This document shows positions 29,934 to 30,246 of a stretch of 33,445 nucleotides of DNA, piece after piece. Made by a program: the position numbers and the translations under genes. Within the stretch, counting starts at the first letter, position 1, and every line of letters starts with the position of its first letter. The stretch is from a virus. Taxonomy: Duplodnaviria; Heunggongvirae; Uroviricota; Caudoviricetes. Under the pieces are notes generated by a model. The model did no database searches. It was not told where the DNA came from and saw nothing but the letters and a program-made list of their open reading frames with translations. Location: the IMG/VR virus record IMGVR_UViG_3300045988_112031, positions 1 through 33,445 of that record, one strand, 5' to 3'.

Positions 29934-30064
29934 GCTCAGCGCACGCGGGTTAAGGTTGAGGCTGACAGTCGACCTTCTGTGGATACCCACCCGTCTGGTG
30001 TGCAACCTTCGCCAGGCACCGGGAGGCACCCGGCACCACAACTTTATGCTGTGTGTAGTCCTGG

Positions 30065-30110
30065 CGGTACCAGTTTGTACCATTGCTTCCGGCTGGTACC
30101 GTCCTTTTTA
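30065..30110 (+). terminator. candidate intrinsic terminator (tL-like) in the pL leader
   Basis: 9-bp stem CGGTACCAG / CTGGTACCG with a roughly 19-nt loop, followed by TCCTTTTT. Coordinates approximate. Confidence 0.4.
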
Positions 30111-30197
30111 CAAAACAGAGAAGAGCATCACCGGACGACGGGCTCATAACCCAATCCATCCGGGCGGCTGCCACCGCAGGTGTTCTTCTCTGTTTTG
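30111..30197. repeat. 17-bp inverted repeat (CAAAACAGAGAAGAGCA / TGTTCTTCTCTGTTTTG) enclosing about 53 bp
   Basis: Pairs at all 17 positions (one G-U) when read as RNA; sits directly upstream of the Shine-Dalgarno of the yfdP-like gene. Confidence 0.55.
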
Positions 30198-30246
30198 TGG
30201 AGAAACCAACCGACCTTGCAGGGTCGATATGATGAGGAGCAGCAAA

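Follow-up and report, generated by a model that had tools for sequence, protein, structure and literature searches.

A divergent STnc100/PasD-type RNA in the early-left operon of an SfV-like prophage

The 33,445-nucleotide stretch of viral DNA analysed here (IMG/VR record IMGVR_UViG_3300045988_112031, positions 1 to 33,445; hereafter the window) is an SfV-like prophage, and at positions 29897–30109 of its plus strand, between the first gene of the early-left operon and a yfdP-like gene, it contains a divergent, unannotated member of the STnc100/PasD family of RNAs, one of an SfV/ST64B/e14 subtype that lies below the Rfam threshold. The STnc100/PasD family itself is already known; what is new here is an STnc100-type copy in an operon read from the early-left promoter pL. 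We put at a little better than even (about 55%) the chance that this is a terminated Hfq-type small RNA whose terminator is also a barrier within the early-left operon, and that a long hairpin downstream of it is a structured 5′ untranslated region (UTR).

The one meaningful Rfam match is to RF02076 (STnc100), which aligns over its full length (model positions 1–206) with 29897–30112 at 39.5 bits (E 4.6e-7); all of the other Rfam families reported at E values up to 10 (DicF, ftsZ-DE, MIR5998) are chance matches. Relatives were gathered by blastn with a 5′ block and a 22-nt block (CACCGGGAGGCACCCGGCACCA, 30017–30038) that is present in more than 120 viral contigs, 435 phage records being matched, and a covariance model, R1, was built from 26 divergent family representatives. 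R1 scores the window copy at 72.2 bits (E 1e-15), the single full copy in the window, the ST64B copy at 71 bits, and those copies that Rfam itself calls STnc100 at 88–102 bits; the Sakai copy, for example, scores 101.3 bits with R1 and 207.7 bits with Rfam. Because these scores link the window copy with the Rfam-level copies, we regard the window element as a real but divergent member of the family, and we note that the ST64B and e14 copies are likewise missed at the Rfam gathering threshold. PasD and STnc100 have been described as related (bioRxiv 10.64898/2026.05.13.724894). A first-pass annotation made from the sequence of the window had listed a small RNA among several options for this region, and it is this option that the Rfam and R1 scores bear out.

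The structured core and its parts, all on the plus strand, are as follows.

29918–30042, plus strand: STnc100-type core, a multi-helix junction of about 125 nt (Rfam RF02076, model R1)
29919–29927 with 30034–30042, plus strand: P1, the closing helix (core model)
29928–29930, plus strand: AAU (core model)
29931–29946, plus strand: P2 hairpin, GCGGCUCAGCGCACGC (core model)
29947–29950 with 29989–29992, plus strand: short helix (core model)
29952–29958 with 30003–30009 in the P4 loop, plus strand: pseudoknot, AAGGUUG with CAACCUU (pseudoknot test)
29995–30000 with 30010–30015, plus strand: P4 (core model)
30019–30033, plus strand: P5, CCGGGAGGCACCCGG, CCGGG-AGGCA-CCCGG (near-invariant)

The window copy has the core blocks that the family shares (P1, AAU, P2, P4 and P5 CCGGGAGGCACCCGG), lying within the sequence blocks UGGUGAAU... 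and ...CACCGGGAGGCACCCGGCACCA, with the closing P1, the inner hairpins, a linker and an intrinsic terminator, and it sits, like the others, in a lambdoid prophage on the operon strand. It differs in its P2, which is GCGGCUCAGCGCACGC rather than CCCCU-NNGCGG-AGGGG, and in the junction before P4, which is CCCG rather than CGCGG and pairs with the strand after P2. It also lies in the early-left operon behind pL and not between the antiterminator gene Q and the lysis genes, and it has a weak promoter of its own and an extra conserved hairpin module downstream.

Comparison of 93 distinct core sequences shows 92.4% of cells to be paired, compared with 79.4% in shuffles and about 45% in slid-partner controls, with two-sided changes in 17 of the 26 core pairs, located in P1, P2 and P4. 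The strand that follows P2 is complementary over 6–11 nt to the P4 loop, its sequence differing by lineage; at least six contiguous base pairs are found in 52 of 67 distinct combinations (52 helix types), against 10–13% in shuffled-loop and cross-lineage controls. Such pairs elsewhere include AGACUGACAA/UUGUCAGUCU in our locus L014 (11 bp by eye), CCAGUC/GACUGG in L009, and GCCAGGUCG/UGACCUGGC in L048. This pseudoknot is absent from the Rfam STnc100 structure line and is not mentioned in the PasD/STnc100 preprint (bioRxiv 10.64898/2026.05.13.724894). P5 is near-invariant, as are the junction nucleotides, and P5 stays so even in 116 loci picked by the 5′ motif alone from many Enterobacterales genera; a few of its changes are compensatory (UCGGG/CCCGA and CCUGG/CCAGG, for example). 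A conserved GGUGAAU was considered as a sigma-70 pause signal of the −10-like type and was rejected by eye, there being no A at its position 2.

The region had been described as about 300 bp of GC-rich, highly structured sequence, and this holds well: G+C content is 0.54–0.575 over 29900–30300 against 0.38–0.47 in the flanks, and the plus strand of 29897–30250 has a minimum free energy of −145.7 kcal/mol, compared with a mean of −118.5 for dinucleotide shuffles (z = −4.69), none of 100 of which fold as well. The start given for it, 29934, is too late, in that the core begins at 29918 and the likely transcript at about 29897–29900. Covariation among homologues, proposed at the same time as a check, is found in P1, P2, P4 and the pseudoknot, and also in the long hairpin and the small hairpin discussed below.

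That the element is non-coding is apparent from several lines of evidence. The view that the region encodes an N-terminal extension of YfdP from the ATG at 29929, or a YmfH-like protein, draws on an open reading frame (ORF), 29929–30609, that does run into yfdP, as the first-pass annotation had pointed out, and on RefSeq/PGAP annotation of a ‘protein YmfH’ or a ‘frameshifted hypothetical protein’ on homologous DNA. Stops in all three frames are nevertheless present in 87 of 186 distinct cores (47%) and no frame is common to all of them, the spacing between the conserved core motifs is spread evenly modulo 3, and K-12 ymfH and the window ORF lie in different frames. Further against coding, the substitutions in the helices are compensatory, indels and swapped terminators fall inside the ‘ORF’, there is a strong Shine-Dalgarno sequence and a conserved start at 30247, and no Pfam or NCBIfam family matches the ORFs over the RNA, orf33 or YfdP. 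We find a coding role scarcely credible, and the earlier description of the region as non-coding structured RNA is upheld by the many compensatory changes and the want of a conserved reading frame. In K-12-type e14 (L002, 4078–4400), ymfH (4082–4393) spans the STnc100-like core, the terminator and the long hairpin, upstream of xisE-intE; the core there scores 57.5 bits and has a P5 loop deletion and one broken P5 pair. Escherichia coli K-12 ymfH is thus probably the same RNA called as a protein.

Downstream of the core the plus strand contains the following features, up to the yfdP-like coding sequence.

30043–30062, plus strand: single-stranded linker UUUAUGCUGUGUGUAGUCCU, 20 nt, conserved, a candidate seed
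30063–30109, plus strand: intrinsic terminator, with arms 30063–30073 and 30093–30104 (11 bp, one bulge), a 19-nt loop, and U5 at 30105–30109
30110–30198, plus strand: long hairpin module (inverted repeat), with arms 30110–30134 and 30174–30198 of 25 nt, 84% complementary, and 39 nt between them
30211–30226, plus strand: small hairpin CGACC-UUGCAG-GGUCG, just 5′ of the ribosome-binding site
30234–30609, plus strand: GAGGAG ribosome-binding site (30234–30239) and yfdP-like coding sequence (ATG 30247, stop 30609); SfV orf32 and the PGAP yfdP start here

The terminator, which had been recognised as a hairpin followed by a T-run and is indeed present, has an exact 9-bp core (30065–30073 with 30093–30101), a hairpin energy of −19.7 kcal/mol, and a position 20 nt 3′ of the core. 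A short linker followed by a U-tailed intrinsic terminator, the 3′ end of an Hfq-type RNA, is also the arrangement of the family, in which 165 of 201 distinct downstream regions (82%) contain an intrinsic terminator, whose distance from the core has a median of 26 nt (range 2–218; 10th to 90th percentile 18–158). A simple terminator scan missed the hairpin at 30063–30109 because its loop exceeds 8 nt. Alignment of the 3′ part across six phages (the window, mEp460, ST64B, phiNP, LLS and e14) shows that the terminator stem sequences have been swapped among these relatives while the hairpin and U-run are retained. The linker AUUGCUGUGUGUAGUCUU is kept in ST64B, phiNP, LLS and e14, including those in which the core is degenerate (LLS, 23.6 bits) or absent (phiNP).

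The long hairpin has a lower stem of 18–25 bp and a three-way apical part with CGACGGGCUCAUAACCCAAUCCAUCCGG. All six phages keep its stem, the changes at alignment columns 104/211, 111/204, 115/200 and 126/150 being compensatory, and the apical motif CGACGGGCUCAUAACCCAAUCCAyCCGG is nearly unchanged. The first-pass annotation had noted here a 17-bp repeat enclosing about 53 bp and ending at the ribosome-binding site; the perfect part is in fact 18 bp and does enclose 53 nt, within 25-nt arms, but the repeat stops 35 nt before that site, and the small hairpin lies between it and GAGGAG. The small hairpin is found in the same place with other sequence in the relatives, three of the six having changes on both sides at columns 232/243. 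The yfdP start codon and Shine-Dalgarno sequence align in ST64B, phiNP and LLS, with indels in the sequence upstream; in e14, the whole hairpin module precedes xisE and not yfdP, and the module therefore belongs to the RNA unit rather than to yfdP. A plus-strand scan reveals no promoter between the terminator and yfdP, where by eye there is a poor TATGAT without a −35 sequence. We also note that the U-run at 30105–30109 can pair with a conserved GGAGA (30200–30204) in all six phages, which would add five pairs to the hairpin in read-through transcripts.

The prophage setting is that of Shigella phage SfV, with which 29809–30250 is 98.9% identical; of 5426 complete E. coli genomes, 2785 have a match of at least 90% identity to this region, with query cover of at least 80% in 1814. 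The features upstream that bear on transcription of the element are these.

28483–29136, plus strand: cI-type repressor gene, followed by its terminator at 29159–29183
29199–29252, plus strand: pL promoter with OL operators (TTGACA 29223–29228, 18-nt spacer, TACATT 29247–29252)
29263–29355, plus strand: related element, 5′ half only, at +3 to +6 of the pL transcript; 7.8 bits on its own
29370–29645, plus strand: first pL gene, a 91-amino-acid ORF (SfV orf33), in the same gene order as in SfV and e14
29868–29896, plus strand: possible weak promoter of the element itself, AAGACA-17-TATTTT (consensus scan), with a predicted start at about 29900; the Rfam alignment starts at 29897

The order cI, pL, 91-amino-acid ORF, RNA element, yfdP-like gene, yfdQ, yfdR and on to xis and int is the same here as in SfV and e14. 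The OL operators, ATGTAGGATAACCAACAT (29199–29216) and ATGTTGGATATCCTACAT (29234–29251), flank TTGACA-18-TACATT just after the cI terminator, and the repressor half-sites TGTAGGAT are found at two places only, the cI-cro intergenic region (28421–28475) and 29199–29251. Since the site at 29199–29252 is pL, the RNA element, about 650 nt further downstream, is on the transcribed strand of the early-left operon, and pL is an upstream source of transcription through it that is under repressor control. There are no cI operators within the element; they sit at 29199–29251, and the inverted repeat at 30110–30198 is accordingly not an operator of this repressor. The product of the first pL gene has no Pfam match and by eye is not arginine-rich, and the phage has no recognisable N. 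On the minus strand, an 81-amino-acid ORF (29563–29808) overlaps the 3′ end of the 91-amino-acid gene by 83 nt, an arrangement mirrored in e14 by ymfI and ymfJ; SfV and PGAP annotate the plus-strand gene alone, and Pfam matches the product of neither ORF. Should the minus-strand ORF be a true gene, transcription from pL would run antisense through it.

Elsewhere the family is spread over Enterobacterales prophages, with the same-strand gene upstream usually encoding a Q antiterminator (PF03589, PF06530 or DUF1133) and holin and endolysin genes downstream; in Shiga toxin (Stx) phages the element lies after stxB and before nanS-p. About 20 subfamilies have a TTGACx-18-TAxxxT promoter whose end lies 2 nt ahead of the model start, so that transcription starts at the first bases of P1. 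Copies commonly form tandem arrays with a period of about 250 nt, of three copies in L020 (342–1038), four in L012 (2325–3352), four in L028 (1724–3286), and five in L059 (4378–5460 and 8378–8516), four of them close together. In the L020 array, which we read out, every unit comes with a linker and a terminator of its own and apparently with its own promoter, and a transfer RNA gene follows; genomes of Superficieibacter, Pantoea and Leclercia also have several copies within a few kb. Eleven family copies are transcribed in uninduced EDL933, one of them verified by Northern blot (PMC5331693), PasD RNAs show Hfq-dependent stability and have many partners in data from RIL-seq, which ligates and sequences interacting RNAs (PMC8550237), and family members accumulate in uninduced lysogens as terminated RNAs of about 200 nt (PMC5331693; PMC8550237). 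In VT2-Sakai (L129, 2968–3227) the anti-small-RNA AsxR (RF02703, 88 bits) lies on the opposite strand directly after the terminator of the Sakai STnc100, the two being convergent neighbours between stx2B and nanS-p.

A likeness can also be drawn with the lambda pR′-6S RNA-tR′ arrangement, in that most of the family RNAs are about 200 nt long, start at a strong promoter located between Q and the lysis genes, and end at an intrinsic terminator that Q-modified polymerase must pass; however, the true pR′ and tR′ of the Stx phages are elsewhere, and the window copy is in the pL operon. We considered whether the STnc100 promoter is itself the late promoter pR′, and this is unsupported because the Stx phages and L009 have another promoter-like site beside Q. 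We know of no conserved structure or function of lambda 6S RNA as an RNA.

With a structured 5′ domain, a linker and a U-tailed terminator, and with relatives that are expressed in lysogens and are Hfq-dependent, the element is most likely to yield an RNA of about 200 nt that pairs through its linker. In the scheme we favour, pL read-through on loss of repressor would transcribe 29897–30109, with perhaps a weak contribution from the element's own promoter, and most polymerases would stop at 30109 and release the RNA of about 200 nt. The analogy of PasD and STnc100 suggests that this RNA would be Hfq-associated and would pair with mRNAs via the linker, the core being a stabilising scaffold, or a scaffold that binds some host factor. 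The terminator would at the same time keep unmodified transcription out of the yfdP to xis-int genes. In those transcripts that read through, the long hairpin and the small hairpin would form a structured 5′ UTR of the first downstream gene and would probably set its processing or translation, the 18–25 bp stem having the look of an RNase III-type substrate.

Several observations weigh against this scheme. The Rfam score of 39.5 bits is below the gathering cutoff of 47, and P2 departs from the STnc100 family consensus. Expression and Hfq dependence have been shown only for other family copies (PMC5331693; PMC8550237); the window copy's own promoter is weak, and the homologous promoter of K-12 e14 was active in one condition, in one of two replicates (PMC12132413). 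With its own promoter weak and the K-12 homologue almost silent, this copy may hardly be made in the lysogen. A search for targets of the linker within the window gave no more matches than expected by chance, a strong terminator in an operon that needs xis and int expression requires a bypass and none was identified, and about 40 core nucleotides that are invariant across genera are not explained by a model in which only the seed acts. K-12 ymfH, xisE and intE belong to the e14 induction iModulon (PMC12132413), and, taken together with the weak promoter and the near-silent homologue, this indicates that the RNA here is probably made mainly from pL.

The invariance of the core lends itself to other explanations. 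The near-invariant core may dock a conserved host machine, such as RNA polymerase or a CsrA-like post-transcriptional regulator, as a scaffold plus variable guide, or it may mark pL or late transcripts in cis so that these alone get past the element's own terminator; we consider this an unlikely proposal, and if the cis-marking form of it were true the N-less SfV/e14-type phages would have an RNA switch between a small RNA in the lysogen and read-through on induction. A processive antiterminator like put of phage HK022, in which the core would bind its own polymerase, take pL or late transcription past terminators and so replace N, is quite unlikely. It would suit a phage in which N is not recognisable and the first pL product matches nothing in Pfam, with the element on the operon strand, ahead of long operons (pL here, Q to lysis elsewhere), a half copy at +3 of pL, family transcripts that often start exactly at P1 as putL starts at +3 (PMC9378689), xis and int downstream of the terminator and induced with e14, and a core whose host-wide invariance fits a conserved partner such as RNA polymerase. 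The HK022 elements are likewise promoter-proximal structured RNAs on the pL operon strand of an N-less lambdoid phage with terminators after them, but they are of about 70 nt and two stems, whereas the window has a pseudoknotted multi-helix junction of about 125 nt, and no two-stem element of that size with the conserved put sequence is found here. Neither by sequence nor by model does the element resemble putL or putR, comparison with the HK022 immunity region by blastn-short giving only chance 8–10-mers and R1 finding nothing in HK022 at E below 1. STnc100 family members moreover terminate efficiently, uninduced lysogens accumulating terminated family RNAs of about 200 nt (PMC5331693); copies have lysis genes immediately downstream, and self-sufficient antitermination there would be lethal; tandem arrays with their own promoters and terminators would be senseless for a processive element; and the Stx phages, and probably L009, have a separate pR′ beside Q. 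RNA-based antitermination, another of the roles first suggested for the region, is thus unsupported.

A conditional terminator had been suggested as well, and would have the core sense a ligand or protein and decide whether the hairpin at 30063–30104 forms. The layout resembles that of a riboswitch, with a pseudoknotted core, a variable 3′ part, a terminator and same-strand genes, and by eye GGUACC-type segments at 30067–30072, 30077–30081 and 30096–30101 could pair alternatively. Yet the terminator never overlaps the conserved core anywhere in the family, the variable spacing being 18 nt or more in 90% of cases, close relatives swap terminator sequences freely, the downstream genes are unrelated between contexts, and no Rfam riboswitch matches; neither a terminator competing with an aptamer nor linkage to one gene function is seen. 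Since the terminator lies clear of the core and is followed by unrelated genes, we regard a riboswitch-like terminator as very unlikely. It is somewhat unlikely, too, that the module at 30110–30246 works independently of the small RNA, as a nut-like or RNase III-controlled leader in the style of the lambda N leader. Its compensatory conservation in six phages, its near-perfect stem, and its linkage to the terminator where the core differs (mEp460) or has been lost (phiNP), or where xisE replaces yfdP, speak for such a leader, as would the apical-loop sequence GCUCAUAAC, which loosely resembles boxA, GCUCUUUAAC. The boxA likeness is weak, though, with two U's replaced and the motif located in the loop of a predicted hairpin; no N-like protein is recognisable, the 91-amino-acid product of the first pL gene lacking a Pfam match; the stem is only predicted to be an RNase III substrate; and a leader role is compatible with the small-RNA reading, of which it is already the UTR part. 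The RNase III hairpin of the lambda N leader is presumably comparable with 30110–30198, both being long near-perfect hairpins between the early-left promoter region and the ribosome-binding site of the first gene, but there is no sequence similarity between them.

The half element at pL hints at a mosaic history of the region. It contains a P1 5′ strand, GUUGUGGUG, AAU, P2 (GCGCA-GGCUGA-UGCGC) and two more hairpins, without a 3′ half, and it has a near-identical counterpart in the 5′ half of a complete divergent element of mEp460 (L132, 2354–2489; 24.5 bits, E 6e-4). The mEp460 element has P1 and P2 as in the half element of the window, a P5 of CCGG-AGAUCAGCA-CCGG compared with CCGGG-AGGCA-CCCGG, and no clear pseudoknot, and the terminator, hairpin and yfdP to which it is joined are the same as here; in mEp460 the annotation places gp36, a ‘hypothetical protein’ on the minus strand, over the terminator and hairpin just downstream of the element. 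In the SfV type, the 3′ half of an mEp460-like element seems to have given way to orf33 and the present core. As the P1 5′ strand GUUGUGGUG is identical in the half and full elements, the two 5′ strands could compete for the 3′ strand at 30034–30042 on pL transcripts.

In ST64B (L133, 2155–2245) and phiNP (L134, 1342–1432) the pL-proximal leader is a conserved structured RNA, AGCGAACAGGCAGGACGCC...CCGGAUGAUUCGCU, with the motifs CGAACnGGC and GGAUGA that are common to HK022 putL and putR, and in ST64B and LLS an additional intrinsic terminator precedes the STnc100-like element. Judging from these motifs, examined by RNAalifold on four sequences only, the ST64B and phiNP leaders could be put-like antiterminators that carry pL transcripts past both terminators. 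Further upstream in the window, on the minus strand at 26991–27179, there is a C4 antisense RNA (77.8 bits) beside isrK (78.7 bits), both above the Rfam threshold; these matches fall in the 5′ part of an ORF (26379–27233) whose product has Ash and Rha (antirepressor-type) domains, and the site resembles a P1/P7 immI-like or Gifsy-1 IsrK-like control region of an early-right operon.

The element, whose region has matches in 2785 of the 5426 complete E. coli genomes, is without RNA annotation in the records examined. The subtype scores just under the Rfam cutoff, and annotation pipelines therefore call spurious or ‘frameshifted’ proteins in its place, K-12 ymfH included. Recognition of the RNA corrects these annotations, and it adds a pL-operon subtype to STnc100/PasD, a family abundant in the prophages of enterohaemorrhagic and enteropathogenic E. 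coli and of Salmonella. A terminator in an N-less early-left operon raises the testable question of how it is bypassed on induction, and the function of the family can be approached through the pseudoknot, the invariant loop of P5 and the start of transcription at P1.

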